A stretch of DNA of 64,000 nucleotides from an uncultured Clostridia bacterium (GCA_944386735.1 CALXCH010000002.1:90-64089); one strand, 5' to 3'; positions 4,884-63,945 are shown, numbered from the stretch's first letter. The notes: generated by a model not told the origin, from the letters alone. Translations and numbers: made by a program.

Positions 4884-4918
4884 AATTTTCTATTAATTTA
4901 ATTCATTATTTAATTTTA

Positions 4919-4953
4919 GAGCTGTTTTTTGACCCCGTCCCAAAAAACAGCTC
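4919..4953. repeat. H2 hairpin repeat, copy 1
   Basis: GAGCTGTTTTTT-GACCCCGTCCC-AAAAAACAGCTC. The same core recurs at 44906-44934 and 61941-61975. It lies between convergent genes. Confidence 0.85.
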
Positions 4954-4995
4954 TTTGTAACTACCATGTCTATTACAAAATGTAACAGATACTTT

Positions 4996-7879: not shown

Positions 7880-10141
7880 TTATTTAGAAACGACCTCCAC
7901 CGCCGCCTCCGGCCTCCGCCGTCCGCCGCCACCAGATGATCCGCCTCCAAATCCTCCACCTGAGCTATATGAAGATGAGCTAATACTATAAGAACTATTA
8001 TGAATAGCTGTTTCAACACTTCTGCTTAATTCTCTAGTTATTCCTAAATTTACACTTTGATATATTAATAAATTTGTATCTATATTACTTGTATCTGTAA
8101 TACTCATTTTCATCTTCTTTTCTACTTTATCGGCACAACCTAAAACTGTTGCTGTAACTAAATATCTTTCCCATAAAGTAATTTCAGGTAAATCTTTTTC
8201 ATCGAAATTACTAAAATCTTTTAGAAATCTTTTGTGGGCAAGCCATTTTGAATATTCTTCTTTACCTTTTTTGGTTCTATTTTTATCATTAGCATTTATA
8301 ACTAAATAGATACTATTAATTATTGTAATTCCTAGTAAATAACCTAAAACTTGCAAAGTACAATTACTTAATCCATAAAATACTCCAAATGCAAGACAAA
8401 GGCTTAAAACATAATTTATAATTACAAAAATTTTATAAATAATTGATGTCTCATTTCCTTTAAAATATTCTTTCCTCTCTGTTTCTTCCTTAGTTACTTT
8501 TTCAAACTCATCAATTCTTTTAATTAAATTTTTAGCCTTAGATGTGTTTTTTCCATAATTTTTTAAAGATTTTAAATTACATTTATTGTCTCTTCCAACC
8601 ATATTAAATAAAACATATAGAGCTACAGCTTCAGCACTTGTTCCTCTATAACTTTTGTTTTCAAGAACTAATATTACATCATCATTATCAGGATTTTTTT
8701 CATAAGATATTATTTTTTTGTTTATTAAATTTAATATTGTTGCTGAAAATCCTATATTAGTACTTTTCCTTTTCATTAGATATTCCAAGACATTTGGATT
8801 ATCCTCACTTGGAAACTCTCTATAATAGTGTCCTTTAAACTTATGTCTTTCATTAATTATTTTTATTAATTTATATATAGCAATAGCACCTAAGATGGTA
8901 TTTGTAATTATAACAAAAATTGTAAAACCTTTCCTTAATCTTGCTTGTTTTACCTCTAATACATTATTTAATTTTTCATAAATATTTAGATATTCCTTTT
9001 TTGCTTCTTCATCAAAACCTTCTTCTACATTTTCTTTAAAATCCTCTAGTCTGCTTCTTGTTAAAAACATATAATTATCATCTATTAAACTCTTTATATT
9101 ATATTTTAATCCTTCTTTCCAATTCTCATTTACCATGTCTTTTGTTTTTTCTATTCTATCTAAGAAATTTTGTTTTTCTTTGCTTGTTTCATCTAACTCA
9201 TTTACTAGTTCTAATGCATAATTATAATAATACATCCTTTGATTTTCTTCTAAATCAACTACTGCTTCACTTGCTTTACTTTCAAGATTCAATTTTTCTT
9301 TTTCTCTTTCCGAATTTGCTGTATCTGCCAGCATTTGCTCATATTTTAAAATATTATCTCTTCCATCTATATTAGATTTTTTAGTAGCTTGTGGCACCAA
9401 ATCTTTATTAAACATAATTCTTATAGTTTCTGGAGTATAACTATCTACATTTGTATCTTTAAAATACAATGTCTTAGAATCTAATATCTTATTTTCACCA
9501 GTAAGTGGCCCATGTGTCCAAATTCTAACATCACTATCTTCTCCTGGTAAATGTACAACAACTTGGAAATCTTCTACAATTTCTTCAAAATAATCTCCTA
9601 ATACATTCCAATATAATTCTGCTACATCATTATGCACTACAACTGCATCTTCAATAGTATATTCTATACACATAACTTTATTTTTGTTATTAGGGCAATA
9701 AATTTTAAAATCTCTACTCGAGCTATGTTCTGTAAGTTCATAAACTCCATAGTCGCCATTAGATGCACTTCTTACTTCTTCATATATAGTTTCAGCTTTT
9801 TTTATATCATCAATCGAATTAAAATTTTCTTGTGATATGTCATATACTTTAATATCTTTCATGCCTGTTCCATCATATATATCTGTATTTCCTGTAAAAT
9901 TACTATATATTCCAGTAAAAGCAATTGCATAAGGGTTTTTAAAATCTATATCTCTTAATCTACCATTATATTCTCCTTTAAGCCAAGCAGCTTCTCTTAC
10001 AGTCATAGAGCCATCTTCATTTATTGTTATATCTTGATATAGCAATTTAGTAGTTTCTTCTTCCTTCGCTAAAACATTATCTGTTAGGCAAAATACAAAT
10101 ATCATTGTAATAAATATTAATACTATTCTTATTTTTTTCAT
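7880..10141 (-). CDS. DUF2207-family membrane protein with a Gly-rich C-terminal tail (paralogue 1)
   Basis: Signal peptide, a large ectodomain, 3-4 TM helices, a WERYLV motif and a GGGFGGGSSGGGG tail. Paralogous to 19580-21496. The ATG at 10141 has better SD spacing than the one at 10147. Confidence 0.75.
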   Translation of the reverse strand: MKKIRIVLIFITMIFVFCLTDNVLAKEEETTKLLYQDITINEDGSMTVREAAWLKGEYNGRLRDIDFKNPYAIAFTGIYSNFTGNTDIYDGTGMKDIKVYDISQENFNSIDDIKKAETIYEEVRSASNGDYGVYELTEHSSSRDFKIYCPNNKNKVMCIEYTIEDAVVVHNDVAELYWNVLGDYFEEIVEDFQVVVHLPGEDSDVRIWTHGPLTGENKILDSKTLYFKDTNVDSYTPETIRIMFNKDLVPQATKKSNIDGRDNILKYEQMLADTANSEREKEKLNLESKASEAVVDLEENQRMYYYNYALELVNELDETSKEKQNFLDRIEKTKDMVNENWKEGLKYNIKSLIDDNYMFLTRSRLEDFKENVEEGFDEEAKKEYLNIYEKLNNVLEVKQARLRKGFTIFVIITNTILGAIAIYKLIKIINERHKFKGHYYREFPSEDNPNVLEYLMKRKSTNIGFSATILNLINKKIISYEKNPDNDDVILVLENKSYRGTSAEAVALYVLFNMVGRDNKCNLKSLKNYGKNTSKAKNLIKRIDEFEKVTKEETERKEYFKGNETSIIYKIFVIINYVLSLCLAFGVFYGLSNCTLQVLGYLLGITIINSIYLVINANDKNRTKKGKEEYSKWLAHKRFLKDFSNFDEKDLPEITLWERYLVTATVLGCADKVEKKMKMSITDTSNIDTNLLIYQSVNLGITRELSRSVETAIHNSSYSISSSSYSSGGGFGGGSSGGGGRRRPEAAVEVVSK

Positions 10142-15635: not shown

Positions 15636-16229
15636 TTATTTTATTAACTTTAGCTTTAGTACATCATTTTTTCCATTTTGTGCTTCTAATATTTTAATTA
15701 CGTTTTCTTTAGTTATTCCTAATTCTTCTTGCATTTTTTCTTGAGTTTCTCTTACAAATAATAAATTGTTATTAATTACAGATTGTGAACTTTTTAATGA
15801 ATTAACAATTTTTCTTATTTTGTTTTGTCCCTTTTTAACTGTTTCTAATTCTGTTTGTATATTGGAAATATTAGCTTTCATTGTTTCCTGTTCATCTTTT
15901 ATTCCTATAATATCAGCTTTTATTGCTTCCTGTTCTTCTTTTATTGTTACAATGTCAGTTTTTATTGCTTCCTGTTCTTCTTTTATTCCTATAATATCAG
16001 CTTTTATTACTTCCTGTTCTTCTTTTATTGTTACAATGTCAGCTTTTATTACTTCCTGTTCTTCCTTTATTGTTACAATATCAGCTTTTATTACTTCCTG
16101 TTCTTCCTTTATTACTGTAATATCAGCTTCCATTTTTTCTTGTCTTTCCTTTATGTCTGTAATATCACTTTTCATGTCTTTAATATCAGAATGCATATCA
16201 GTAAGTAGCTTAATTATTTTTTCTTCCAT
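15636..16229 (-). CDS. coiled-coil protein built from 14-aa tandem repeats
   Basis: About seven copies of KADIVTIKEEQEVI-like units, with a heptad-compatible pattern. SD GGAGAAAAA. Confidence 0.65.
   Translation of the reverse strand: MEEKIIKLLTDMHSDIKDMKSDITDIKERQEKMEADITVIKEEQEVIKADIVTIKEEQEVIKADIVTIKEEQEVIKADIIGIKEEQEAIKTDIVTIKEEQEAIKADIIGIKDEQETMKANISNIQTELETVKKGQNKIRKIVNSLKSSQSVINNNLLFVRETQEKMQEELGITKENVIKILEAQNGKNDVLKLKLIK
15871..16164. repeat. 42-bp tandem repeat, about 7 copies, in frame within the CDS
   Basis: Unit TCAGCTTTTATTRCTTCCTGTTCTTCYTTTATTGTTACAATR starts at 15871, 15913, 15955, 15997, 16039, 16081 and 16123. The outer copies are degenerate. Confidence 0.9.
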
Positions 16230-19579: not shown

Positions 19580-21496
19580 TTATCTTCCTCCTCCACCTCC
19601 TCCGGCCTCCGGCCGCCACCGACCGCCACCAGAGAAGCCTCCACCTCCACCAGAAGCAGATGTATATGCTGTTGACATAGAATTGCTAATTGCATTTGAA
19701 AAACTTCTAGAAAAATCTGTATGTATCATTAAATACATATATGGATATGTATTTACATTTATAGTATTTTCAATATCTGGATATACAACTTTTAATTGTT
19801 TTAATACTTTGTCTGCAATACCAAATGCAGTAGCAAACACTAAAAATTTCTCCCATATCGCAATCTCTGGAACCTCTCTTTTATCAAGTAAAGAAAATTC
19901 CTCCATATATTTTTTAAGTCCTTTCCATTTAGCAATTTCATCTATTCCACTTTGTGTAAATATATCTATTTTATATATTGCAATTCCTGTTGCAATTAGA
20001 TTTAAAAACATTATAATTAGTAAAACAACGCATCCTATAATAGCCAAACTTCCAAGCCAATCTACAACTGCAATTGATCCAATTACACAAAATATAAATA
20101 ATGTTAAGAACAATACTTGCATGCTAGATTCTTTTGCGTATTTTTCTTTTTCTTCTTTATTAATTAAGTTTTTATCTATTAATTTTTTCTTAGATTCTTC
20201 TTTTACTTTTTCTTGTAAATTCAATATTTTAGTTGTTGATGCATTTCTAATATATTTTTCTAATCCCTTTACAGTAAGTTCTCCATCTTTTTGTTTATTA
20301 AAGGCTGATAATAAAAATTCTCCTATTGCTCTTTCATCTTTATTTTCTAATCCAAGTAATCCTTCTCTATCTAATAATTTTATACTAATCTCATCTTTTC
20401 CTTTTTCGTTTTTCTTACTTTGTATTTCTATTAATTTTTTCAAAGCCAACTCTAATAATGTAGCAGAAAAGATTTTTCCTATATCATTTTGTTGTAAACT
20501 TAATTTTACTTCTTTTTCCAAATATAGTGCCTCTGCAGGAGATGCGTCTTCTCTTGGTATTTCTCTAAAATATATTACTTCTTCGCTTGGCTTTTTTCTT
20601 TTCCTTGTTATTATTAATTTTATTTTTCTTATTATATTAATTATAAGAAGCACACCAATTACGATAACTGCAATGTAGAAAATTACTAAATATATCATTC
20701 TTTGATTTCTTAGTCTGTTTGCTTCTTCTGCCCAGACAGTTTCTTCTCCTAATACATCATCTAAAATAGGATGATTATATGTTCTTTTTACTTCTCCACT
20801 TAATACATCTAATGGAAATAATGTTCTTATTTCTACATATGTTCCTGCTTTAAAATCATTTATTGTAAATTCTATTTTATTATTATCTGTTGCATATATC
20901 TCTCCATTTAATCCAGCAGTATGCCCCCATACTCTTATTTCATCTTTATTTTCTACTTCTTTTGGAAGAATTATTGTTCCTGTAATATTTTTAGCATCTA
21001 TTTCAAAATCTTCACCTACAAATTGCCAATAAAACTGATTGTAATCTGAATATTTTCCTACTGCTCCTTCTACAGTATAAGAAATTTCATAAATCCTAGT
21101 ATCTTTCCCATCATCTAAACCTACACCCCATGCAATTTCAAAATTACCATCATTATTTATTAAACCATAATAATAATCTTTTGTTACGTGGTACATAAGT
21201 CTTGTTGTTTCTGTAAAATCCTTATTTATTCCACCTGTTGTTTCTCTAACTGTTACATCTTTTATGTCTAAATATTTACTACTATCTGTTTTAAAAGTCT
21301 TAAATAAAGTATTTGTATCTTCTATGTTAATATCCCAAGTTTCAGTTACCTTCATATCTCCATTTTCTAAAATTTCAGCATCAAAGTTCAAATTATTTAA
21401 TTCTAAATCACTAGAAGCTGCATTACTTTTATTTCCTATAATCAGAAATAAAACTAAAAATATTAAAATAATTCCTAATCTTTTAATCTTTTTCAT
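19580..21496 (-). CDS. DUF2207-family membrane protein with a Gly-rich C-terminal tail (paralogue 2)
   Basis: Same architecture as 7880-10141 (signal peptide, ectodomain, TM cluster, WEKFLV, GGGGGFSGGG..GGGGGGR). The start overlaps nagZ by 14 nt. Confidence 0.75.
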   Translation of the reverse strand: MKKIKRLGIILIFLVLFLIIGNKSNAASSDLELNNLNFDAEILENGDMKVTETWDINIEDTNTLFKTFKTDSSKYLDIKDVTVRETTGGINKDFTETTRLMYHVTKDYYYGLINNDGNFEIAWGVGLDDGKDTRIYEISYTVEGAVGKYSDYNQFYWQFVGEDFEIDAKNITGTIILPKEVENKDEIRVWGHTAGLNGEIYATDNNKIEFTINDFKAGTYVEIRTLFPLDVLSGEVKRTYNHPILDDVLGEETVWAEEANRLRNQRMIYLVIFYIAVIVIGVLLIINIIRKIKLIITRKRKKPSEEVIYFREIPREDASPAEALYLEKEVKLSLQQNDIGKIFSATLLELALKKLIEIQSKKNEKGKDEISIKLLDREGLLGLENKDERAIGEFLLSAFNKQKDGELTVKGLEKYIRNASTTKILNLQEKVKEESKKKLIDKNLINKEEKEKYAKESSMQVLFLTLFIFCVIGSIAVVDWLGSLAIIGCVVLLIIMFLNLIATGIAIYKIDIFTQSGIDEIAKWKGLKKYMEEFSLLDKREVPEIAIWEKFLVFATAFGIADKVLKQLKVVYPDIENTINVNTYPYMYLMIHTDFSRSFSNAISNSMSTAYTSASGGGGGFSGGGRWRPEAGGGGGGR

Positions 21497-38080: not shown

Positions 38081-39097
38081 TTATAAAGAATTTATGTCCT
38101 GAATTTCTACACCAACATAAAAATGTTTAATTATATCTTCATAATTTTTACCCTCTTTTGCTAAAGTATCTGCTCCTGTTTGGCTCATTCCAACACCATG
38201 ACCATAGCCTTTAACTGCAAACTTTATATTACCATCTCCTCTTATTATTTCAAAATTAGTAGACTTTAAACCAAGTAAACTTCTAGTTTCTGTTCCTGAA
38301 AGTTCGTGATTTCCAAACTTTACTGTTTTTACTCTCCCACTATCAGTATAATCTAAAATTTTTAAGTCCTCATCATTATTAAAATCAATTGTAATATCTT
38401 CATATTTTGTTTTTAATTTTTCTATTAATTCATCTTTTGTAAATGTTGCTTCTGAACTATATTGAGCATATCCTTCTTCTCCTGCAGTTTCCACCACCTG
38501 TAAATAAGGATATTCTGTTCCACCACCCCAAACATTTACAGGAAGCTCTGTCGTACCTCCACTATTTGAGTGGAAAAACGCATTTATAGGCTTTCCTTCA
38601 TATGTAATAATTTTTCCTTTAGTTTCATTAACACTTTGTTCTATTTTTGCCCAATTACTTTCTCTTTTATCTTCATCCCATCTAGCTAATCTATCTTCTT
38701 TTGATATCCAAGCTTGGCAGCAAGATGAGTCATCACAAATATCTGCGTTATTATGTTTTTTGTTTTGTATTTTATAAATAGTATATGTTCTTGCAACAAC
38801 TGCTTGTGCTTTTAATGCCTCCATTTCAAAATCTACAGGCATTTCGCTTGATACCACATTACATAAATATGTATCTAGTGGAAGTTCTTCAACCTCTCCT
38901 GTACTTGTATGTAATAATTTTATTGTTCCATAATTTTTATAATCATATGTATTATTATTTATATTTTCTGTTTGTTCTGTATTTTCATTTGCATTATTTT
39001 CTGGAACTTTTGCTTCTACATCTTTTTTAGTAAGCATTGCTGGAAGTAAAAAGAAAACTAATAAAAATACCCAAAAATAGATAAAAACTTTTTTCAT
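38081..39097 (-). CDS. spoIID: stage II sporulation protein D (lytic transglycosylase)
   Basis: SpoIID/LytB domain motifs (LKAQAVVARTY, FHSNSGGTTE, GHGVGMSQTGA). Confidence 0.9.
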   Translation of the reverse strand: MKKVFIYFWVFLLVFFLLPAMLTKKDVEAKVPENNANENTEQTENINNNTYDYKNYGTIKLLHTSTGEVEELPLDTYLCNVVSSEMPVDFEMEALKAQAVVARTYTIYKIQNKKHNNADICDDSSCCQAWISKEDRLARWDEDKRESNWAKIEQSVNETKGKIITYEGKPINAFFHSNSGGTTELPVNVWGGGTEYPYLQVVETAGEEGYAQYSSEATFTKDELIEKLKTKYEDITIDFNNDEDLKILDYTDSGRVKTVKFGNHELSGTETRSLLGLKSTNFEIIRGDGNIKFAVKGYGHGVGMSQTGADTLAKEGKNYEDIIKHFYVGVEIQDINSL

Positions 39098-39132: not shown

Positions 39133-39864
39133 TTATGAGCATAATTTGGTTTTCATACTATTTAAAACTTTTCTTTCTATCCTTGATACTTGTACTTGTG
39201 TTACTCCTAAGATTTCAGCTACTTGGCTCTGAGTCTTCTCTTTAAAAAATCTAAGTAATATAACTTTTTTATCTCTTTCATCTAAATCTTTTATTAGCTC
39301 ATTTATTACAATTTTATTAGTAAGGATTTCTTCTTCGTCTTTATCCGTAGATAATCTATCAATTAAATTAATGCTTTTTTCATTTTTAGAGTTATTATTA
39401 TTTGAACTTCCTTCAATAGACTCTGGTTTTCTTGTTGCCTCTATTGCTAAGACAATATCTTCTCTAGATACTTTTAATTCTTTTTCTATTTTTTCTATAC
39501 TTATATCTTCTCCTTTTTTGTAAAAATATTCTTTCTGCAATTCTCTTATTTTAATTCCTAATTCTTTTATACTTCTACTTACTTTAATTGGTCCATCATC
39601 TCGAATATACCTTTTTATTTCTCCTATCATATAAGGAACTGCATATGTTGAAAGTTTTACTTCAAAATTAGTATCAAATCTTTTTACAGACTTTATAAAT
39701 CCCATACATGCTATTTGGTATAAATCTTCTTTTTCATATCCTCTGCCTTGAAACCTTTTCACTATAGACCAAATAAGACCATTATTATTATTTATTAACT
39801 TTTCTAGCTCCTTACTATCTCCCCCTTGAGCTTTTTTTATGGATTCTTTATCATTTTCGTACAT
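39133..39864 (-). CDS. sigF: RNA polymerase sporulation sigma factor F
   Basis: Sigma-70 regions 2-4. Third gene after spoIIAA and spoIIAB. Confidence 0.9.
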   Translation of the reverse strand: MYENDKESIKKAQGGDSKELEKLINNNNGLIWSIVKRFQGRGYEKEDLYQIACMGFIKSVKRFDTNFEVKLSTYAVPYMIGEIKRYIRDDGPIKVSRSIKELGIKIRELQKEYFYKKGEDISIEKIEKELKVSREDIVLAIEATRKPESIEGSSNNNNSKNEKSINLIDRLSTDKDEEEILTNKIVINELIKDLDERDKKVILLRFFKEKTQSQVAEILGVTQVQVSRIERKVLNSMKTKLCS

Positions 39865-39881: not shown

Positions 39882-40352
39882 CTAAGAATTTGTCATAAGC
39901 ATTTTAAATTCATCTTCATCTTTATCTTCTTTTGGTTTTATAACCTTAGACATAGTAACTTTTGTTCCTAAACCTACAACAGATTCCACCTCCATTTTAT
40001 CCATAAAGCTTTCCATTATAGTAAATCCCATTCCTGATCTTTCTAGATTAGGCTTTGTTGTATATAATGGTTCTTTTGCCATTTCTACATTTTCTATACC
40101 TTTCCCTTTATCAGAAATTTCTATTATAATTTCATTTTCTTTCAGCCAGCTTGAAATTTTAACAACTCCTTGTTTCTTATCATAACCATGAATAATACTA
40201 TTTGTAACTGCTTCTGATACAGCAGTTTTAATATCCGCAAGTTCCTCTATTGTAGGATCTAGTTGTGAAGCAAAAGCTGCAACGGCAATCCTTGCAAAAG
40301 CCTCATTTGAAGACTTACTAATAAATTCTAATTTCATCTCATTATTATACAT
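39882..40352 (-). CDS. spoIIAB: anti-sigma F factor (serine kinase) SpoIIAB
   Basis: GHKL kinase motifs ([30 protein letters not shown]). The ATG at 40352 follows GGAAGGAAAT. The track's 189-aa version reads through repeat DNA. Confidence 0.88.
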
Positions 40353-40369
40353 ATTTCCTTCCTTTCTTT

Positions 40370-40440
40370 GTCGCATTGGGGACGTTTCCTTTTGCGACAT
40401 TTTGTACTCATAGGAAATGTCCCTATGTGACATTTTATCG
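40370..40440 (-). repeat. H3 modular repeat, copy A, between spoIIAA and spoIIAB
   Basis: GTCGC-ATT-GGGGACGTTTCC-TTTT-GCGACA-TTTT-GTACTCA-TA-GGAAATGTCCC-TAT-GTGACA-TTTTAT. Confidence 0.9.
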
Positions 40441-40454
40441 TTTTGAAACACATC

Positions 40455-40769
40455 TTAATTCAATTCTACTGTTGGAATTAATTTTAATATCCCACTCATA
40501 TCAAAGATTCTCCTCACACTTCCAGTTAAATTGCTTACTCCTAGCTTTGCTCCTATCATATTTGCAAACTTATACCTTCCTATTACTAATCCTATTCCTG
40601 CGCTGTCCATGAAAGTAACACTATCAAAATCAAATACAACTTTTTTAGGCATATATCTTTCCATTTCATAATCCGCTTTCCTCCTTATCTCTTGTACACT
40701 ATGGTCGTCAATTTCAGACGTAACTTTTAGGACCAGCAGCTTGTCCTTTTCATAAAATTTTGACTCCAT
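40455..40769 (-). CDS. spoIIAA: anti-anti-sigma F factor SpoIIAA (STAS domain)
   Basis: STAS pattern with the phosphorylatable Ser context (FMDSAGIGLVIG). The ATG at 40769 follows GGAAGGAG. Confidence 0.88.
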   Translation of the reverse strand: MESKFYEKDKLLVLKVTSEIDDHSVQEIRRKADYEMERYMPKKVVFDFDSVTFMDSAGIGLVIGRYKFANMIGAKLGVSNLTGSVRRIFDMSGILKLIPTVELN

Positions 40770-40846
40770 ATAACTCCTTCCTTTCCAAAAATTTACATTA
40801 ATTATATTACTGTTTCCAATATTTTCCAAGAGTAAAAAATAAGAAG

Positions 40847-41135: not shown

Positions 41136-41531
41136 TTAGACTGTTTTCACCTTAATCGTCCTAGATTTTGGAATCTCATCTTCATTATAAAGAAGAATAC
41201 CATGGTTGAGATCAGATACTCGCGCTTGCCTCTCCAAATATTCAATCAACTTTTTGACCTCTTCCTTTCTATGAAAATATGAGTATTTTCCAATCACGAC
41301 TTGAATTGACTTGCTTTCGCAAAGATCTTTAAGAAATGGTTTGATATTATACCACCCATTATTATCTTTAAGTGCAACTACCAAATATTGAATACCCAAG
41401 CTATCATATCTTGGTCCACATAAACAAAACTCTTCTGTTTCTACTTCTATTTCAGGTTTACAAATTTTCATTCTCCAATCCTGAAATCTCCTTGCATCTG
41501 CATTTTCGATAATAAGTTGAATAGTAAACAT
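41136..41531 (-). CDS. hypothetical protein (131 aa), GC-elevated orphan cassette 1
   Basis: SD AGAAAGGAAAAG, own promoter and terminator, and elevated G+C. No family recognised. Confidence 0.6.
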   Translation of the reverse strand: MFTIQLIIENADARRFQDWRMKICKPEIEVETEEFCLCGPRYDSLGIQYLVVALKDNNGWYNIKPFLKDLCESKSIQVVIGKYSYFHRKEEVKKLIEYLERQARVSDLNHGILLYNEDEIPKSRTIKVKTV

Positions 41532-41686: not shown

Positions 41687-42130
41687 TTAATTACTCTTGG
41701 ACTTCGCGGCTCCGTCAATAACAACTTTTACTGTCTTTTTAATAGCAAAATATGTCATGCTCCCATTTTCGTTCTCGGTATCTTCAGGTGCCAAAATCTT
41801 CGACTCTCTACAAGTAATCTTGACAAGCCAAATCAAATGGTCAATAAGCTTTGAAAGCATTTCCCCATCAATTCCGAAATCCTTGTATGGCAAGACCAAA
41901 TCATACTTAGGTGCTTTGACTACTTCTTGGAACAAAGTCCCAATTTCGTCTGAAAGCTCAACTCTCTCTGTAAAATGGATTTGCCACTTGGAATAAGAGC
42001 ACGATGCCTTGGCATCAAGTATAAAACTTGGAGTCTCCACTCCACTTTCGGTATCCCTGAACTTCAGTACAGGAATATCACAGTTGCTACCAACAACATC
42101 CTCGAAAACAAGTTGAAACCTTGTAGCCAT
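41687..42130 (-). CDS. hypothetical protein (147 aa), GC-elevated orphan cassette 2
   Basis: SD GAGAAAGGA. My hand count of the first 100 nt gives about 40% G+C, against about 27% in the adjacent valS. No family recognised. Confidence 0.6.
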   Translation of the reverse strand: MATRFQLVFEDVVGSNCDIPVLKFRDTESGVETPSFILDAKASCSYSKWQIHFTERVELSDEIGTLFQEVVKAPKYDLVLPYKDFGIDGEMLSKLIDHLIWLVKITCRESKILAPEDTENENGSMTYFAIKKTVKVVIDGAAKSKSN

Positions 42131-44855: not shown

Positions 44856-44889
44856 AATATCCTCTCCTTCTTTATTTTTATTATTTTAT

Positions 44890-45744
44890 TCACTTATTAT
44901 TCTTACTGTTTTTTGACCCCGTCCCCAAAAACAGCATTTTATAACTACATTCAAATTCTTCATTTGGCTCTAATTTTAAAATATTTTCTTTTGATTCTAA
45001 CTTTCTATCTGTATTTACTTTATCTGCTGTATTCATCCACGGTTCAATGCAGACGAATGGTGCTCCTATTTTTGCCCACAGTCCTAAATATGGAAATCCT
45101 GTAAAATCAAACTCTAAAATAGTTTTTTCATTTTCTTTTAAATAAACTTTATTAGATTTTATATTTTTCATAATAATAGCATCATTTACAAAACTATCTT
45201 TATTTAAATTGATACAATTATTAGATAAAATATTTGGAGCTTCTTCTTCTAAAACTAAACCATCTTTTAAACTCATGAATTTTATATTATCTTCTTGCTT
45301 TTCAAATTCTATTTTATATTTTCCGCTTGAATAATCACATATAAATGCTGGATGACCACCTAAACCAAATATCATTTCTTTTTTATCTTTATTTACAACT
45401 TTATATTTAGTAGTCACTGTGTTTCTTTCTACTAAATGAGTTACATATAAACTAAATTCATATGGAAACTTTTCTAATGTTTCACTATTACTTTCTAAAA
45501 CATATTCATGTTTATTTTCACTTTTTTCTAATTCCTTAAATTCCATATCTCTTGCAAATCCATGTTGCCTCATATGATAAGCTTTTCCATCTATTATTGT
45601 TTCATCATTTTTCAGTCTTCCTACTATGGGAAACAATATTGGTGCATGTCTATTCCAATACTCTCCTTGATGCAATCTTTCTTTTCCATCAAGTTTTATG
45701 CTTGTTAGTTCTGCTCCTTCTTTTTTACTTTTGATTTCTAACAT
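44890..45744 (-). CDS. aldose 1-epimerase family protein (LacX-like)
   Basis: Family pattern APILFPIVGRL..HGFAR, GGHPAF and EPW. The last 15 codons or so are encoded by H2 repeat DNA. Confidence 0.8.
   Translation of the reverse strand: MLEIKSKKEGAELTSIKLDGKERLHQGEYWNRHAPILFPIVGRLKNDETIIDGKAYHMRQHGFARDMEFKELEKSENKHEYVLESNSETLEKFPYEFSLYVTHLVERNTVTTKYKVVNKDKKEMIFGLGGHPAFICDYSSGKYKIEFEKQEDNIKFMSLKDGLVLEEEAPNILSNNCINLNKDSFVNDAIIMKNIKSNKVYLKENEKTILEFDFTGFPYLGLWAKIGAPFVCIEPWMNTADKVNTDRKLESKENILKLEPNEEFECSYKMLFLGTGSKNSKNNK
44906..44934. repeat. H2 hairpin repeat, copy 2, inside the 3' end of the epimerase ORF
   Basis: CTGTTTTTT-GACCCCGTCCCC-AAAAACAG. It is translated as ..LFLGTGSKN.. in the annotated frame. 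Confidence 0.85.
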
Positions 45745-50205: not shown

Positions 50206-50332
50206 ATCTACTCCTCCTTTGTAATTTTTTACTCCATCCAAATTATAACATATCAACCTTTTTTTACAATTAATGACACAAAAACGTAATATAAATGTAA
50301 TAAAAATGTATTATTTTTTCTTATTTGATAGA

Positions 50333-50420
50333 TGTGTCCCAGGTGCGACAAAATGTCGCATCTGGGACGTTTCCTATTGCAACATTTTGTGTTCAAAGGA
50401 AACGTCCCCAACGCGACATT
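50333..50420 (-). repeat. H3 modular repeat, copy B (full length), abutting the pfkA stop codon
   Basis: TGTGTCCC-AGGT-GCGACA-AAAA-TGTCGC-ATCT-GGGACGTTTCC-TATT-GCAACA-TTTT-GTGTTCA-AA-GGAAACGTCCCC-AAC-GCGACA-TTA(stop). Confidence 0.9.
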
Positions 50421-51564
50421 AATCTCCTAAATTTATTCCTATATCTCTTGCTGTTTTTACTAAATCATCATCCATTGTTACTTTTCTTAGATTACTTTCT
50501 GCAGTATTTCCTGATACAGCTCCTATTCTTGTATTTTTTCCTACAACTTCTTCTAATGATACTGAATCAAGTTTTCCATTTTTAATTACTGCAAGTGTTC
50601 CAAATTTTCCTTCTAGTGCTAATTCCATTGCTTTTGTTCCATACTTTGTTGATAATACTCTATCAAATGCTGTTGGTGTTCCTCCTCTTTGCATATAACC
50701 TAAAGTTGTATTCCTTGCTTCTAACCCTGTCATTTCTTGTAATTGTTTTGCAACTATTTGTCCAATTCCTCCAAGTTTTGTATTATCTACGCCTTCACCA
50801 TTATCTCTTGTTCCCATTATTGTAAGTTCTCCGCCTATTGGTTTTGCTCCTTCTGCTACTACTACTACACTAAAGTTCTTTCCTCTTTTCTTTCTGTTTT
50901 CGATTTTACTAGCAACTTTGTTTATATCATATGGTATTTCTGGAATTAAAGCAACATCTGCTCCTCCTGCTATTGCTGATTCTAATGCTATCCAACCAGC
51001 ATATCTTCCCATTACTTCTAATACCATTATTCTATGATGTGTCGCTCCTGTTGTGTGCAATCTATCTAAAGCTTCCATTGCAACTGATACTGCTGTATTA
51101 TATCCAAATGTTATTTCAGTACAAGCAACGTCATTATCTATTGTTTTTGGAACTCCTATTACATTTACTCCTTTTGTTGAAAAGTCTCTTGCTGACTTTT
51201 GTGTTCCATCTCCACCTAAAGTAAATATACAATCAAATCCAAAGTCTTTCATATTTTGAATTGCTTCATCTGATAAATCTTTATATTCTACGCTTCCATC
51301 TTCATTTACTACTTTATAATTAAAAAGGTTAGCATTTGTAGATGAACCGATAATAGAACCACCTTTAGGTAAAATTCCTAATGCTTCTCCTCCTTTTGCT
51401 GTACTTAATAGCTCAAAATCTTTTTTTATTAATCCATTATATCCATCTATAATTCCATAACATTCTACTCCATGGTTTTCTGCTGTTTTTACAATTGCTC
51501 TTATTACTGCATTAAATCCTGATACATCTCCTCCATTTGCAAGTATTCCAACTTTTTTTAACAT
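50419..51564 (-). CDS. pfkA: 6-phosphofructokinase
   Basis: PFK motifs (GGDVSGFNA, TLGGDGT, PKTIDND, EVMGRYAGW, GYMQRGG). The ATG at 51564 follows AGGAGG. Confidence 0.88.
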   Translation of the reverse strand: MLKKVGILANGGDVSGFNAVIRAIVKTAENHGVECYGIIDGYNGLIKKDFELLSTAKGGEALGILPKGGSIIGSSTNANLFNYKVVNEDGSVEYKDLSDEAIQNMKDFGFDCIFTLGGDGTQKSARDFSTKGVNVIGVPKTIDNDVACTEITFGYNTAVSVAMEALDRLHTTGATHHRIMVLEVMGRYAGWIALESAIAGGADVALIPEIPYDINKVASKIENRKKRGKNFSVVVVAEGAKPIGGELTIMGTRDNGEGVDNTKLGGIGQIVAKQLQEMTGLEARNTTLGYMQRGGTPTAFDRVLSTKYGTKAMELALEGKFGTLAVIKNGKLDSVSLEEVVGKNTRIGAVSGNTAESNLRKVTMDDDLVKTARDIGINLGD

Positions 51565-51700
51565 ACGAATTCCTCCTATCAAAATCTCATTTTGTTTTTT
51601 CCATATTTTTCTTTCAATATTATTATATCAATAATTTATTTTTTTACAACAACTTTTTATATTTTTAAATAATTTATTCAATGATATTAACACTAATTTA

Positions 51701-53020: not shown

Positions 53021-53067
53021 GGGACGTTTCTATTTACAACATTTTTGCTGTAATAAAGAAACATCCC
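53021..53067 (-). repeat. H3 repeat, degenerate copy D, 7 nt after the PBP stop codon
   Basis: GGGACGTTTCT-ATTTACAACATTTTTGCTGTAATAA-AGAAACATCCC. It has the same stem and loop layout as the core of copies A-C. Confidence 0.7.
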
Positions 53068-53073
53068 TAACTG

Positions 53074-55104
53074 TTATTCTAATAATGTTCTTATCTTTTT
53101 AATCAAGTAATGACTTCCTCCACTACTATTATCTTGTACATTTTCTACCATACTAATAATTAGCATGTCTGTACCGTTTTGTCTATCTATTGTATAACAA
53201 TCAAACCATCCTAGTGTTCCACTTTCTGTATCTTCACTAGATGTCTTAAGTTCTGCTGTTCCTGTTTTTCCAGCAATTGTTGTACCTGCAATCTTCATAT
53301 CATTTGCAGTACCTTCTGGATTTTCAACAACTTGTATTAAATCATTTTCAATAGTATCTGCCGCTTCTTTTGTAAAAGCATTTTCTATTAAGATTTCTCC
53401 ATTTTTACTCTCATCATATTCAATTCTTGGTTTAATCATATTACCATCATTTGCAAATGCTGAATATATTGCTGCCATATGTATTGGATTTACCAAAATA
53501 TCACCTTGGCCATATCCACTATCTGCAAGTTTTGTTTCTCCTGAAATTTCCGTTCCATTATTACTTGCATATTGAGATTTTGAAAGCGTAAGTGGAAAGT
53601 CTAAGCTTTGGTTAAATCCTATTTTATCTAAACTATTTGTAAAAGTATCTGCACCTATTTTTAAAGCAGATTGTGCAAAATAAATATTATCTGAATGTAT
53701 AATTCCATTTAATAAATTCTTTGCTCCTGAATAGCCTGTTAAAGTTGTTACTTTATAATTTCCCCAAGAACTATCTTTTTGCCAGCTTGTTCCTGTGTAT
53801 CCATAATCTTCGTTTGGATCAATTTTTCCTGTTGTTAATCCTATTGCTCCTGTTACTGGTTTAAACGTAGAACCCGGACAATATTTTTGTGTAAATCTAT
53901 TATATAGTGGTCTTGCTTCATCATTATTTAATTCATTCCATTTATCAGTAGTTAACCCTACAACAAAGTCATTTGAATCATATGATGGTGTACTTACTAA
54001 TGCTAATAATTCTCCTGTTTGAGGTTCCATTATAACAAAAAATCCTTTATCATCCTTCATTTGGTCATATACTTGTTTTTGTAAAGTACTATCTATTGTT
54101 AATTTTACATCAGTTCCATCTTTTTTATCTTGTGTTGCAATAGTTGCAACTCTATTTTCGTTTCCATCTACTATGTAAATATCTGTTCCATCTATTCCTC
54201 TTAAAGTATCTTCATATGCAAGCTCTAATCCAGATTTTCCAATTAAACTGTTTGTTGTATATCCTTTTCCTTCATTTGCTTCTAATTCTTCACTACTAAT
54301 TGGCTGTACATAGCCTATTAAATGCGCAGCTTCTTGTCCTAAAGAATATACCCTTCCATCTTCTTTATTTATCATAACACCTGGAATTGCAAGTAACTGA
54401 TTTTTTAATTCTGTATTACTATCTACTATTTTTTTAACAGGCACAAATGTATCATCTTTAACATATGATGCACTTAAAGCTTTATTAATATAATCTACAG
54501 ATACTCCTGTTAATTCTGATATTTTTTGTATATTTTCATCTTTATTTTCGCCTAGTTTTCCTGGTACTATTCCAACTGATGCAGTATTTCCATCTTCTGC
54601 TAACACTATACCATTTCTATCTAATATACTTCCTCTTTTTGCTTTTAATGTTGATACTCTTACTTTATCGTTATCACCTAATTGTGGAAATATCATACTT
54701 GATGACCATTTTAATTTTAATTCTCCCTCTTCTTTTACAACATTTGCTGTATTATCAAATTCAACATCCCCTGCTGATGTATACATTTTTTCATGGTAAC
54801 TTACATTATAGCCATTATCAGCTTTTACAATATCTTTTATTTCTATTTGAATATCACTTGCGTCTATTCCTTCATAAATGTTTTGATTTCTTGTTACAAA
54901 ATCTTCTTTACTTGTATTCATACTTGCGACTTTAGAATACATTTCTTCATAACTTTTGTTATTAATTAAAGTAAAATAATCATTAAGTAAACCTTTTGCT
55001 TCTTCTTGTTCTTTGTTTCCCATAATTATAACAGCTGCTACCACAGCAATTACTATGACTATTACTGCTACAATTACTCCGATTAATACTTTTTTATTTT
55101 TCAT
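53074..55104 (-). CDS. class B penicillin-binding protein with an NTF2-like MecA_N domain (PBP2a / PbpC-like)
   Basis: The N-terminal domain parallels the PBP2a N-terminus (..EEGELKLKWSSSMIFP..KRGSILDRNG). Transpeptidase motifs STFK, SDN and KTGT are present. Confidence 0.85.
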   Translation of the reverse strand: MKNKKVLIGVIVAVIVIVIAVVAAVIIMGNKEQEEAKGLLNDYFTLINNKSYEEMYSKVASMNTSKEDFVTRNQNIYEGIDASDIQIEIKDIVKADNGYNVSYHEKMYTSAGDVEFDNTANVVKEEGELKLKWSSSMIFPQLGDNDKVRVSTLKAKRGSILDRNGIVLAEDGNTASVGIVPGKLGENKDENIQKISELTGVSVDYINKALSASYVKDDTFVPVKKIVDSNTELKNQLLAIPGVMINKEDGRVYSLGQEAAHLIGYVQPISSEELEANEGKGYTTNSLIGKSGLELAYEDTLRGIDGTDIYIVDGNENRVATIATQDKKDGTDVKLTIDSTLQKQVYDQMKDDKGFFVIMEPQTGELLALVSTPSYDSNDFVVGLTTDKWNELNNDEARPLYNRFTQKYCPGSTFKPVTGAIGLTTGKIDPNEDYGYTGTSWQKDSSWGNYKVTTLTGYSGAKNLLNGIIHSDNIYFAQSALKIGADTFTNSLDKIGFNQSLDFPLTLSKSQYASNNGTEISGETKLADSGYGQGDILVNPIHMAAIYSAFANDGNMIKPRIEYDESKNGEILIENAFTKEAADTIENDLIQVVENPEGTANDMKIAGTTIAGKTGTAELKTSSEDTESGTLGWFDCYTIDRQNGTDMLIISMVENVQDNSSGGSHYLIKKIRTLLE

Positions 55105-60496: not shown

Positions 60497-60710
60497 AATG
60501 TTAACCTTTCTCTCTTTTTAACATTTATTATATAAAACTAAGTTGTAAGAGGCTTTTCCCTCTACTATTTAGTAGAAAAAAGGAATTATGTACAATTAGT
60601 ACTCTTATAGTTTATCACTCATTTAAATAATTTTCAACACAAAACAAAAACTTTTAACATAACAAACTTCTTATGTTCCACTTTTCTCCCCTTGTATTTT
60701 CCTTAAAAGG

Positions 60711-60800
60711 TATGTCCCAAATGCGACAAAATGTGTTCATGGGGACGTTTCCTTTGAACACAAAATGTCGCAAAAGGAAACGTCCCCATTGCGACATTTT
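60711..60800 (-). repeat. H3 modular repeat, copy C (full length, inverted core), abutting the stop of the DUF2974 gene
   Basis: TATGTCCC-AAAT-GCGACA-AAAT-GTGTTCA-T-GGGGACGTTTCC-TT-TGAACAC-AAAA-TGTCGC-AAAA-GGAAACGTCCCC-ATT-GCGACA-TT-TTA(stop). Confidence 0.9.
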
Positions 60801-61866
60801 ACTTTCTAGTTATATTATCTCTTCCAACCTTAAGTAATGTCTTAAGTGTTTTTGTCATCATGCTTTTAGTTTCTTGACTTAAATTATTGTAAGTTTTAAT
60901 CATTGTTGCTGCATTTTTAAACCATTTGCTACTTAGTTCATTTACCGTCTTTGCTTCTGTAGCATTTAAAATGTCAAAAAAAGCATTAATAAATTCTTCC
61001 CTTTGTTCTGGTGATACTTCTTTTAGCCAATTAGTAATTGTATTATCTATAAAATCACTTGAATTTGTTTGTTTAGCTCTTACAAATTTATCTCCCAAAA
61101 CTTGCCATGAATATAAGTCATGTTGCATTATTCCTGTTTCAGTACTTTTTACAATAGTTGTTTTTTCCTTATGTCTTAATAACCTTCCTATAATTGAAGT
61201 TTGTGGAATATAAGTATGTACTTTATCTAATATTTCATTATATTCTTTACTTTCTATTACTTTATCTGAAAAACCAGGTCCATCATTATTATATACTTCT
61301 ATAATCTGTTTTTTTGTTTCTTCGTTTGAAAAAGCTGATGCATATACTGCTAAATTTCCTCCTTTTGAATGCCCTCCTACACGCAACTTATTTTTATATT
61401 TTTTAGCCACATCATTTAGGTATTTTACACTATCTATCTGAGATGGAACAAGCTCACTAAAGCTCATATTAAAATCTTCTTTCCATCCTATTATTGTATT
61501 ATCTGTTCCTCTATATGATACATAAATTGTATCATCTGGCAAAATTATTGTTATTGCTGCAAATTGTTTTTCTGCTTCTGGCTCTATTTTATTTACAAAT
61601 TTAGTTAGTTTGCAATTTCCGAACCTAATACTTTTTGCAAGTACAGGGTATAAGTCTATATCTTCTGCTTGAAGAGTTCTTCCTGTTGTACCAAGCTCCT
61701 TTGTTCTTGTATATGCTTCTTTTATTGTTATTTCTTCATTTTCATTCATAATACCATCAAATGGGAAATATGAAAGTCTAGATAAAATTAGATTATCTAT
61801 TTCATTAAAATCTACCTTTTTTAAACTTATATCTCTCCAATTCATATAATCAAATATATTTGCCAT
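60799..61866 (-). CDS. Mbeg1-like / DUF2974 alpha-beta hydrolase (lipase-like)
   Basis: YRGTDNTIIGWKEDF and the nucleophile elbow GGHSKGGNLA. Confidence 0.75.
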   Translation of the reverse strand: MANIFDYMNWRDISLKKVDFNEIDNLILSRLSYFPFDGIMNENEEITIKEAYTRTKELGTTGRTLQAEDIDLYPVLAKSIRFGNCKLTKFVNKIEPEAEKQFAAITIILPDDTIYVSYRGTDNTIIGWKEDFNMSFSELVPSQIDSVKYLNDVAKKYKNKLRVGGHSKGGNLAVYASAFSNEETKKQIIEVYNNDGPGFSDKVIESKEYNEILDKVHTYIPQTSIIGRLLRHKEKTTIVKSTETGIMQHDLYSWQVLGDKFVRAKQTNSSDFIDNTITNWLKEVSPEQREEFINAFFDILNATEAKTVNELSSKWFKNAATMIKTYNNLSQETKSMMTKTLKTLLKVGRDNITRK

Positions 61867-61940
61867 TATATTCCTACTTTCTAATATAATAATTATTATT
61901 GTTTTTATACTTTTTATTCTTTATTTTTCTTTCTTCCTTT

Positions 61941-61975
61941 AAGTTGTTTTTTGACCCCGTCCCAAAAAACAACTT
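61941..61975. repeat. H2 hairpin repeat, copy 3, 1 nt after the stop of the hydrolase gene
   Basis: AAGTTGTTTTTT-GACCCCGTCCC-AAAAAACAACTT. Confidence 0.85.
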
Positions 61976-61976
61976 T

Positions 61977-62858
61977 TTATATTTTTTTTATAAAATTAAC
62001 TATATCTTTTGCTACAATTTCTTCTTTTTCATGATATCCATGATTTGCACCATCTACATAATCAATATCTTTTTTAGGATTTGTAATTACATTACTTACT
62101 ATTGTTACTAATTCCTCTGCTTTTTGTAATATCATTTCATTATCATTTCCCCATCTCATAAATAGAGGAACTTTTATATTATTTAATTTTTCTAAGTCGT
62201 TATCTCGTCCATATTTTGCAAAATCTATGTCTTGATTATCCCTTGCATAGCGTAAAAATGTCTTTACACTAATTGGATGAATAAATGCTCCTCTTGGCAT
62301 AAGGTCTTTAGGATTACTTTCTTCTTTTTCTTCTGCTAATTTTAAATATTCTTCATAGTTTTCCCCTAAATAAATTTTTAATGCCATTGGGATATCTATT
62401 AATGATAATAATATTACTCCTTTTATAGACTCTAATATATCTTTTTCCTCTTCTTCTAACAATTCATTATAAGTATATACAATTTTTGTACAACCTAGGC
62501 TATGACCTTGTAAGTATATATCTGTATATCCTAATTCTTTTAATTTTAATATCGCTCCTACTATATCTTCATAAGCTTCTAGTACATCTTCATAAGCAGT
62601 TCCACCAAGTTGCTTTTCCGCATTTCCATTAATATTTTTTCTTATATATTTTACAATTTCACTTCCTCTATTATTAAAACAAAAATAATCAATTCCATTT
62701 TCATTTGCTGATTTTGCAATTATATCGTCTCTTTTCTTAAAACAATTACTTGTCATTCCATGTATTGATAATATTATTTTATTTGTTTTTTCTTCTCCTT
62801 TATATAAAATACCATTTAATTCTATACCATCTGTTGCTAGAAAATCTATTTTCTCCAT
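61977..62858 (-). CDS. alpha/beta hydrolase
   Basis: Nucleophile elbow LQGHSLGC, and a C-terminal His in GANHGY. The ATG at 62858 follows AAGGAG. Confidence 0.75.
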   Translation of the reverse strand: MEKIDFLATDGIELNGILYKGEEKTNKIILSIHGMTSNCFKKRDDIIAKSANENGIDYFCFNNRGSEIVKYIRKNINGNAEKQLGGTAYEDVLEAYEDIVGAILKLKELGYTDIYLQGHSLGCTKIVYTYNELLEEEEKDILESIKGVILLSLIDIPMALKIYLGENYEEYLKLAEEKEESNPKDLMPRGAFIHPISVKTFLRYARDNQDIDFAKYGRDNDLEKLNNIKVPLFMRWGNDNEMILQKAEELVTIVSNVITNPKKDIDYVDGANHGYHEKEEIVAKDIVNFIKKI

Positions 62859-63573: not shown

Positions 63574-63599
63574 CGAAAAAAAATTATTAAAAAGGAAAT

Positions 63600-63945
63600 A
63601 AGTAAATCTATAAGCCGGGTTCTGTCTTTTAAAATAGTCATTTATCTAGGATAGATATCACTATCTACCTCAAGCCACGCAGATAAGAAGGCGCCGAGCA
63701 GGCTTAATCTTCTCATTTAGGTGTTGCTCCAGATGGGGTTTACACTGACCCATTATGTCACCATAATGGCGGTGAGCTCTTACCTCACCTTTTCACCCTT
63801 ACCTAATTTATAGGCGGTTATTTTCTGTTGCACTTTCCTTAAGGTCACCCTCACTAGACGTTATCTAGCATCTTTGCTCTATGGAGCCCGGACTTTCCTC
63901 TCGTAATTCCTTTCGGAATTTACCAGCGACTATTTAACTTACTTA
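63600..63945 (-). ncRNA. rnpB: RNase P RNA (M1-type ribozyme)
   Basis: The minus strand contains the universally conserved GAGGAAAGTCCGGGCTCCATAGAGCA and ACAGAACCCGGCTTA blocks. The termini AAGTAAGT / ATTTACTT can form P1. A TATAAT lies just upstream. Ends are approximate (+/- 5 nt). Confidence 0.93.

Follow-up and report, generated by a model that had tools for sequence, protein, structure and literature searches.

A REP/BIME-like repeat at the spoIIAA-spoIIAB junction of a sigma-F operon, probably a tolerated and fast-changing passenger

Introduction

The repetitive extragenic palindromes (REPs) and bacterial interspersed mosaic elements (BIMEs) of Enterobacteria are short imperfect palindromes that occur in many dispersed copies outside genes, after stop codons or between cistrons, and that form mosaics with short motifs. 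They are co-transcribed with their neighbours and have known or proposed effects on the stability of the upstream mRNA segment. REPs are described as lying past the ends of open reading frames (ORFs), where neighbouring genes run in one direction or converge, and as plausibly transcribed (PMC3733652). Here we describe an element of this kind in a stretch of 64,000 nucleotides from an uncultured Clostridia bacterium (GCA_944386735.1 CALXCH010000002.1:90-64089; the window), where one repeat copy, copy A, occupies most of the spacer between spoIIAA and spoIIAB of the sigma-F operon, a junction to which an earlier note on the sequence had drawn attention. The role of this operon is summarised in PMC3789822. 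We consider it probable that copy A is a co-transcribed REP/BIME-like element and a tolerated, fast-changing passenger at the junction rather than a conserved regulator.

We place the element within the REP/BIME kind as a new variant. As in the enterobacterial families, its copies are dispersed palindromes, extragenic, downstream of ORFs in tandem or convergent arrangement, and mosaic in composition. Unlike them, it has no GTAG head, its conserved segment of 11-13 bp lies in mid-stem between flanking stems that are lineage-specific, its host is a low-GC Clostridium-like organism, and no REP-associated tyrosine transposase (RAYT) was found in the sequence examined. GTAG REPs, the canonical substrates of RAYTs, are defined by a GT[AG]G head that precedes the hairpin on its 5' side by 0-2 nt (PMC6006769, PMC3733652); neither end of copies A-C has such a tetranucleotide.

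REPINs (REP doublets forming hairpins; PMC3116915, PMC3337134) consist of two inverted units with a short spacer that fold into one long hairpin, are non-autonomous and are present in many copies per genome as a species-specific sequence variant. The element resembles them in all of this, and the folds of its copies B and C, like the complementarity of the flanks across the family, are those of a doublet hairpin. It differs in that no tyrosine transposase was identified (tblastn of an approximate IS200 TnpA query, a weak probe for Y1 transposases, gave no significant match in 1.17 Mb), and in that its core box recurs from phylum to phylum; REPIN-RAYT systems, by contrast, are described as for the most part lineage-specific and vertically inherited.

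The CGTC REP superfamily (Di Nocera et al. 2013, PMC3733652) is characterised by a CGTC tag that is terminal and unpaired, followed by a stem of 8-9 bp that begins with AT, a loop of 4-5 nt and a CCA tail. Common to both are a CGTC beside a palindrome (GGAAACGTCCC here), units mostly head to head, a position downstream of ORFs, the lack of a known dedicated transposase and an occurrence in several phyla including Planctomycetes. In the present element, however, the 11-bp box that contains the CGTC is base-paired, the stems are of TGTCGCA type or of other lineage-specific types, and there is no CCA tail. The hosts reported in that paper include no Firmicutes or Actinobacteria.

Hairpin-forming miniature inverted-repeat transposable elements (Correia/NEMIS in Neisseria, ERIC, RUP/BOX in streptococci) are likewise non-coding, of small size, multi-copy and intergenic; they fold over their full length as hairpins in the mRNA, can be intercistronic and can alter message processing or stability. 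In contrast to these, no terminal inverted repeats with a target-site duplication could be defined here, the outer flanks are complementary and lineage-specific, and conservation is highest in the interior. The copies are not flanked by direct repeats; their ends are GATGTGTCCC and a TGCGACA-type module.

Several other candidates were set aside: a tRNA- or tmRNA-acceptor-like minihelix, as the box is without the invariant G53-C61 and there is no CCA; DNA uptake sequences, as no boxes are solitary; and parS, dif/Xer sites, CRISPR repeats and integron attC sites, which were also considered and dropped.

Copy A reaches from the spoIIAA stop codon to the spoIIAB ribosome-binding region

The operon and the parts of the copy are laid out as follows.

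40801..40829, minus strand: promoter-like site (TTGGAA-17 nt-TATAAT) upstream of spoIIAA, from a consensus scan
40455..40769, minus strand: spoIIAA (anti-sigma-F antagonist, 104 aa), TAA stop at 40455-40457; from the ORF and best NCBIfam match spore_II_AA
40369..40454, minus strand: repeat copy A, full-length but a decayed mosaic; from the nhmmer profile and end-to-end alignment with copies B and C
40413..40423, minus strand: 5' core-stem arm in the mRNA, GGGACAUUUCC, with a G-to-A change that gives an A·C mismatch
40379..40389, minus strand: 3' core-stem arm in the mRNA, GGAAACGUCCC, the consensus box, pairing with 40413-40423
40353..40368, minus strand: spoIIAB ribosome-binding region AAGAAAGGAAGGAAAT, outside the repeat; kept in congeners whatever the spacer (junction comparison)
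39882..40352, minus strand: spoIIAB (anti-sigma F factor, 156 aa), start ATG 40352; from the NCBIfam spIIAB equivalog, homologue lengths and the junction comparison
39133..39864, minus strand: sigF (243 aa), 17 nt past the spoIIAB stop; from the ORF and NCBIfam
38081..39097, minus strand: spoIID, downstream of sigF; passes its NCBIfam equivalog cut-off

The gap between spoIIAA and spoIIAB (40353-40454) measures 102 nt and that between spoIIAB and sigF 17 nt. A profile made from the three full window copies (nhmmer) matches the minus strand over 40456-40365 (E = 7e-25; positions 4-97 of a profile about 100 long). The earlier note was right both about the distance from stop to ATG and about a repeat copy lying there. 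It had given the copy about 70 nt of the gap; alignment with copies B and C and the profile extend it to 86 nt (40369-40454; 86-92 nt by alignment and profile), from stop codon to ribosome-binding site. Copy A starts right after the spoIIAA stop (TAA, then GATGTGT...) and finishes (...TGCGACA) at 40369, 16 nt ahead of the ATG. Its orientation is opposite to that of copies B and C, and the plus-strand profile match is weaker (E = 7e-11) and restricted to the palindromic middle. In the alignment with B and C its stop-proximal module is degenerate, with GTTTC for GTCCC and ACGATAA for TGCGACA. Copy A is a decaying copy, with substitutions in both stems and in the stop-proximal module.

That the similarity is due to chance, or the junction to misassembly, has next to no probability. 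Nothing beyond the shortness of the element speaks for it, and it is opposed by the profile score, by repeat counts that no shuffled window reached and by the 102-nt junction itself, which is 100% identical in six independent public metagenome contigs spanning the site.

The naming of the operon agrees with its gene order, an STAS anti-anti-sigma factor followed by a HATPase_c_2 anti-sigma kinase and SigF, which is the spoIIA layout, and with the Pfam domains of identical public genes (STAS on spoIIAA). SpoIIAB scored 209.6 bits against an equivalog cut-off of 135, the model beginning at residue 4 of the 156-aa form. The best NCBIfam match of SpoIIAA, spore_II_AA, was under the equivalog cut-off and over that of the anti-sigma-antagonist superfamily, and the best match of SigF, spore_sigF, under the equivalog and over the subfamily cut-off. 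The SigF protein is identical on 13 public contigs.

In the mRNA copy A is predicted to form an interrupted hairpin without terminator signals

Near the operon start, a consensus scan found a single promoter-like site (40829-40801), and within 40353-40454 it found no terminator-like and no sigma-70 promoter-like site. Because the spacer is without either signal, copy A is expected to be co-transcribed with the sigma-F operon, and its transcript would start at the promoter upstream of spoIIAA.

On the plus strand the spacer carries GGGACGTTTCC at 40379-40389 and its near-complement GGAAATGTCCC at 40413-40423. The 11-bp stem with one G-T pair described in the earlier note (GGGGACGTTTCC/GGAAATGTCCC) belongs to this, the non-transcribed strand; the corresponding mRNA arms are GGGACAUUUCC and GGAAACGUCCC, and an A·C mismatch takes the place of the G-T pair and divides the stem into 5 + 5 bp. 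The predicted folding energy of the 102-nt spacer was -24.1 kcal/mol (z = -2.9 against shuffled controls), compared with -44.2 (z = -7.1) for copy B and -39.4 (z = -5.9) for copy C, both folded in the sense of their upstream genes. The fold of copy A is much weaker than that of the intact copies because of its substitutions in both stems and in the stop-proximal module, and the RNA structure predicted for it is an interrupted, moderate hairpin. With the A·C mismatch and this further decay, it is weaker than the hairpin described in the earlier note.

This hairpin is followed in the mRNA by CCCCAAUGCGACAAAG, without a U-tract. As there is neither a U-tract nor a terminator-like site, read-through into spoIIAB-sigF is expected, as the earlier note had also concluded. 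A terminator or attenuator that reduces spoIIAB-sigF transcription relative to spoIIAA is therefore very improbable. The hairpin does sit directly past the stop codon, and some members of the family in other lineages are followed by T-runs and resemble bidirectional terminators (for example in L023, L026, L084 and L102). At this junction, however, the interrupted stem runs on into CCCCAAUGCGACAAAGAAAGG instead of a U-tract, the consensus scan is negative for the spacer, and no promoter-like site follows from which spoIIAB-sigF, genes required for sporulation, could be expressed.

The junction varies in length, orientation and content among congeners

We compared the junction in ten congeneric lineages, with 79-91% nucleotide identity over the operon and 85-99% identity of SpoIIAB. 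Each line gives the lineage, SpoIIAB identity, spoIIAA-spoIIAB gap and content.

L133: 85%, 14 nt; TGA AGAGGAGAGAATAA ATG, repeat-free
L135: 95%, 36 nt; single small hairpin only
L218-220: 97%, 41 nt; single small hairpin (TTGTCTTTATTAAGACAA)
L016, L017, L018: 92%, 57/58 nt; half element, stop-proximal end TAG followed by GATGTGTCCC as in the window
L131: 91%, 78 nt; reverse orientation, stop codon overlapping the box
L013: 94%, 98 nt; decayed
Window: 100%, 102 nt; full-length decayed copy
L217: 99%, 123 nt; complex double element
L010: 98%, 130 nt; decayed element and AT-rich sequence

The junction was expanded (36-130 nt) in nine of the ten lineages, mostly by repeat-derived sequence and in two by a lone hairpin only. 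The variants differ in orientation and module content, being rearranged, inverted, halved or decayed, whereas the ribosome-binding region, which lies outside the element, was conserved in every congener junction. Change is seen even between strains: in L016 (2444-2500) and L018 (2443-2500), two strains that share one SpoIIAB sequence and are 98.98% identical across 5.5 kb, the middle hairpin is wholly exchanged (TTGGACAAAATGTCCAA versus TGCGACTAAAAAGTCGCA). This suggests gene conversion or re-insertion within the species, and such strain-level swaps mean that the repeat family is still active, or recombining. Judged by these alignments, the junction turns over much faster than the flanking genes, and it may have been occupied early in the genus or repeatedly targeted.

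The earlier note had raised the question whether the insertion is lineage-specific. The particular arrangement seen here is indeed species-specific, but occupation of the junction is not peculiar to this strain. A close relative with a short junction where the repeat is missing, which the note's reading implies, exists in L133. Thus, the first intercistronic junction of an operon with stoichiometric products is not fixed but ranges from 14 to 130 nt within one genus through a repeat, and the congener junctions form a natural series on spacer length and structure versus SpoIIAA:SpoIIAB balance.

Long junctions also occur in more distant relatives

As a baseline we examined 67 metagenome loci encoding SpoIIAB relatives of 64-84% identity. 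Their median spoIIAA-spoIIAB gap was 12 nt; in 37 of the 67 the gap was at most 18 nt or the genes overlapped by 4, 8 or 17 nt, and in the other 30 (45%) it was 32-165 nt, a few of these values being inflated by frameshifted spoIIAA ends. The tight packing of spoIIA cistrons that the earlier note took as normal is thus the commonest state, but it is no rule.

Ten of the long spacers share a locus-specific motif, GGTTTATAGGTAAAACC..AAAAACCTAAATA, which is unrelated to the repeat and has a small co-varying stem. Its carriers are other Clostridia with SpoIIAB identities of 73-84% (L140:1122-1203, L142, L144, L153, L168, L177-L179, L193 and L196). Within the loop of the stem, TAGGT is complementary to a downstream ACCTA. 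The window does not have this motif, which could represent either an RNA element or an internal promoter.

A tolerated passenger or a selected regulator

Rearrangement, inversion, truncation and decay of the element go on freely among sister species, as would be expected of tolerated, selfish or neutral DNA. The direct consequences of copy A are structural. It lengthens the junction from the 14 nt of the sole repeat-free congener to 102 nt and separates the two cistrons; for its translation spoIIAB would then depend on its own strong Shine-Dalgarno sequence instead of on close coupling. An effect on the ratio of SpoIIAA, SpoIIAB and sigma-F, through blocked 3'-5' decay of the spoIIAA segment or through a cleavage site, would probably be modest.

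The other way to read the insert, in line with the processing or stability determinant suggested in the earlier note, is as a selected intercistronic regulator that would set the SpoIIAA:SpoIIAB(:sigma-F) stoichiometry by protection of the upstream spoIIAA segment against 3'-5' decay, by an endonuclease site or by partial masking of the spoIIAB start. REP hairpins act as such intercistronic regulators in some enterobacterial operons, and partner switching is sensitive to stoichiometry. All the expanded spacers fold better than shuffled sequences (z = -2.9 to -5.8), with the exception of L010 (-1.7). A 141-nt fold of the window junction moreover contains a weak 9-bp helix that pairs AUGUGUUUC, just past the stop, with GAAAUAUGU across the spoIIAB start codon; this helix, however, is AU/GU-rich and is seen in the longer fold only. 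At 79-91% nucleotide identity the congener junctions have no length, orientation, sequence or fold in common, one congener manages with a plain 14-nt junction, and copy A is decayed relative to intact members of the family. The absence of a conserved length, orientation and structure among sister species argues against a selected specific role, and we regard a selected regulator as unlikely, although by no means negligible.

Several observations weigh against the passenger reading that we prefer. A structured insert has been retained at exactly this junction in nine of ten congeneric lineages and, judging from mis-called SpoIIAB N-termini, probably in further ones, and this persistence could reflect selection, not just tolerance, of a structured spacer. 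The box was found in no other intergenic region of the 5-8-kb congener loci. The unrelated conserved motif at the same site in other Clostridia hints that the spoIIAA-spoIIAB spacer can be functional. In 11 of 12 copies from low-GC genomes the asymmetric end of the element, GGGACACATC, lies on the side away from the upstream gene; this strong polarity, from which copy A departs, suggests that the repeat family has a strand-specific role. Finally, no transposase or other mobilising protein was identified, and mobility of the repeat is suggested only by its dispersed copies.

The repeat supplies false upstream starts for spoIIAB

Two in-frame starts upstream of ATG 40352 are supplied by the repeat, GTG 40451 (189 aa) and ATG 40376 (164 aa). 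That the spacer is coding, with SpoIIAB beginning at either of them, has in its favour an open frame from 40451 and the choice of public gene callers, which on identical sequence begin the protein at ATG 40376, within the repeat; an exact look-up accordingly found the 164-aa form on record and neither the 156-aa nor the 189-aa form. The extension is, however, repeat sequence and is not conserved as protein. The commonest length among relatives is 156 aa, the N-terminus M[YF]NNEMKLEF is common to congeners with wholly different spacers, L133 has an in-frame TAA immediately before the conserved spoIIAB ATG, the NCBIfam model starts at residue 4 of the shorter protein, and a strong Shine-Dalgarno sequence (AAGAAAGGAAGGAAAT) precedes ATG 40352. 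A coding spacer is thus hardly credible. These comparisons support ATG 40352 as the true start and mark both upstream starts as artefacts of the repeat, which for the ORF from 40451 confirms the earlier note's view of a spurious 33-codon N-terminal extension (its start there is a GTG).

Mis-called homologues from further lineages carry N-terminal extensions that are translated repeat boxes, such as KRKRP, KGKRPQ, GTVP and LGQIYK. For annotation, this means that in-frame starts supplied by the repeat mislead gene callers and that SpoIIAB records of the clade carry false extensions. Such extensions, of 7-31 residues, were noted in the public proteins P0001, P0004, P0009, P0015, P0022, P0027, P0029, P0036, P0059, P0068 and P0069.

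The repeat family in the window and across bacteria

Besides copy A, the window holds three members of the family.

50326..50424, plus strand: repeat copy B, intact, abutting the stop of the minus-strand phosphofructokinase-like gene 50419-51582
60705..60802, plus strand: repeat copy C, intact, abutting the stop of the minus-strand gene 60799-61866
53021..53070, plus strand: relic copy D, GGGACGTTTCT ... AGAAACATCCC, profile E ~0.003, ending ~6 nt from the stop of the minus-strand gene 53074-55104

The 11-mer GGGACGTTTCC, with at most one mismatch, occurs seven times in the window against 0.05 expected, and all seven occurrences fall inside these four intergenic elements, three full copies and one relic per 64 kb. 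All four lie at the stop codon of a minus-strand gene. Their core consists of the complementary boxes (G)GGGACGTTTCC and GGAAACGTCCC(C), present as an exact pair at 50364-50408 and 60742-60786. Between and around the boxes stand organism-specific modules, TGTCGCA/TGCGACA and TGTGTTCA/TGAACACA, in addition to the asymmetric end, and these modules are shuffled among copies A, B and C and among the junction variants.

To look for the family elsewhere, one genome per species (596 Gb) was scanned for exact GGGACGTTTCC, N12-40 and GGAAACGTCCC. The box pair was found in at least 112 stretches (L019-L130), compared with about one that we estimate by chance in 596 Gb. Among the matches listed, the hosts include low-GC Clostridia metagenome-assembled genomes (MAGs), Olsenella/Atopobiaceae, Omnitrophota, Planctomycetes, Deltaproteobacteria, Steroidobacteraceae and others, span 26-73% GC and often have several copies per genome, related MAGs included. 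Viral contigs gave no match to the box pair and thus no sign of a phage origin.

In the same listed matches the flanking stems are lineage-specific in sequence and keep their complementarity. Flank pairing, as a mean out of 8, was 6.4 for the inner extension of the box stem (c:c') and 5.8 for the outer one (a:a'), against ~3.5 in a control with flanks from different elements. An arrangement with the boxes mainly in hairpin loops was only partly supported, with box-in-loop pairing of 4.6-4.8 of 8 versus 5.8-6.4 as stem extensions, and was dropped. The listed elements lie 5-15 nt past stop codons, 54 between tandem or convergent genes versus 5 between divergent ones by crude ORF calls, and many follow the order stop codon, element, ribosome-binding site, ATG. 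Placements inside ORFs in high-GC loci are artefacts of long spurious ORFs and were not used.

No gene was recurrently linked to the repeat in an all-against-all clustering of ORFs from the 112 loci with Pfam on the top clusters; the clusters obtained were background (ABC transporters, two-component proteins, sigma factors, tRNA ligases and peptidases), and the neighbours of the loci were unrelated housekeeping genes. Rfam 15 at gathering score, applied to the window and to 12 loci of several phyla, returned only RNase P and tRNAs, and over the spacer with E up to 10 the best E-values were 4.5-9, with nothing relevant. A full-text literature search with the box strings and their RNA forms met only unrelated primer sequences and no relevant paper.

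That the core box pair is shared across phyla is the most unusual observation. Tentatively, it could mark an undescribed pan-bacterial superfamily of hairpins next to stop codons, built on an invariant 11-13-bp duplex, (G)GGGACGTTTCC(C)/(G)GGAAACGTCCC(C), with lineage-specific complementary extensions, in which the spoIIAA-spoIIAB junction of this genus would be a natural hot spot. As pairing is preserved while spacing varies, recognition of the box would take place in the folded state, as RNA or single-stranded DNA, through a conserved or horizontally spread factor; a transposase, a nuclease or an RNA-binding protein might serve as the reader. If this holds, the spoIIAA-spoIIAB junction would display insertion, inversion, module exchange and excision footprints (the lone hairpins) between sister species. 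The box pair fits neither described REP superfamily and in this way points to an unrecognised recognition system.

A second repeat family is present in the window at 4887-4964, 44871-44948 and 61909-61986. It has the hairpin CTGTTTTTTG / CAAAAAACAG with the loop ACCCCGTCCC, which reads GGGACGGGGTC on the other strand and has GGGACG in common with the box of the first family.

Other features of the window

Upstream of the sigma-F operon, two minus-strand ORFs (41136-41531 and 41687-42130; 131 and 147 aa, no Pfam match) lie between valS and spoIIAA, as they do in L001-L003. L010 and L016 lack both, with valS immediately preceding spoIIAA, and other congeners have different small ORFs; the two genes thus form a variable islet. 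Upstream of valS the window showed no T-box. In L013 (1-1369), L014 and L015, three independent assemblies of the lineage of P0018 (SpoIIAB identity 94%), gene calling splits valS into two ORFs (one of 451 aa, the other of 376 or 313 aa), which could be due to a frameshift or a pseudogene.

Elsewhere, a tandem array at 15792-16211 (42-nt period, ~7-10 units, 62-84% identity) is probably a repetitive coding region. GC-rich CCTCC/GCCGCC runs at 7894-7938 and 19587-19621, in a genome of ~27% GC, may encode Gly/Pro-rich repeats on the opposite strand. The only window match to Rfam at gathering score is the following.

63595-63945, minus strand: RNase P RNA, bacterial class A (298.9 bits)

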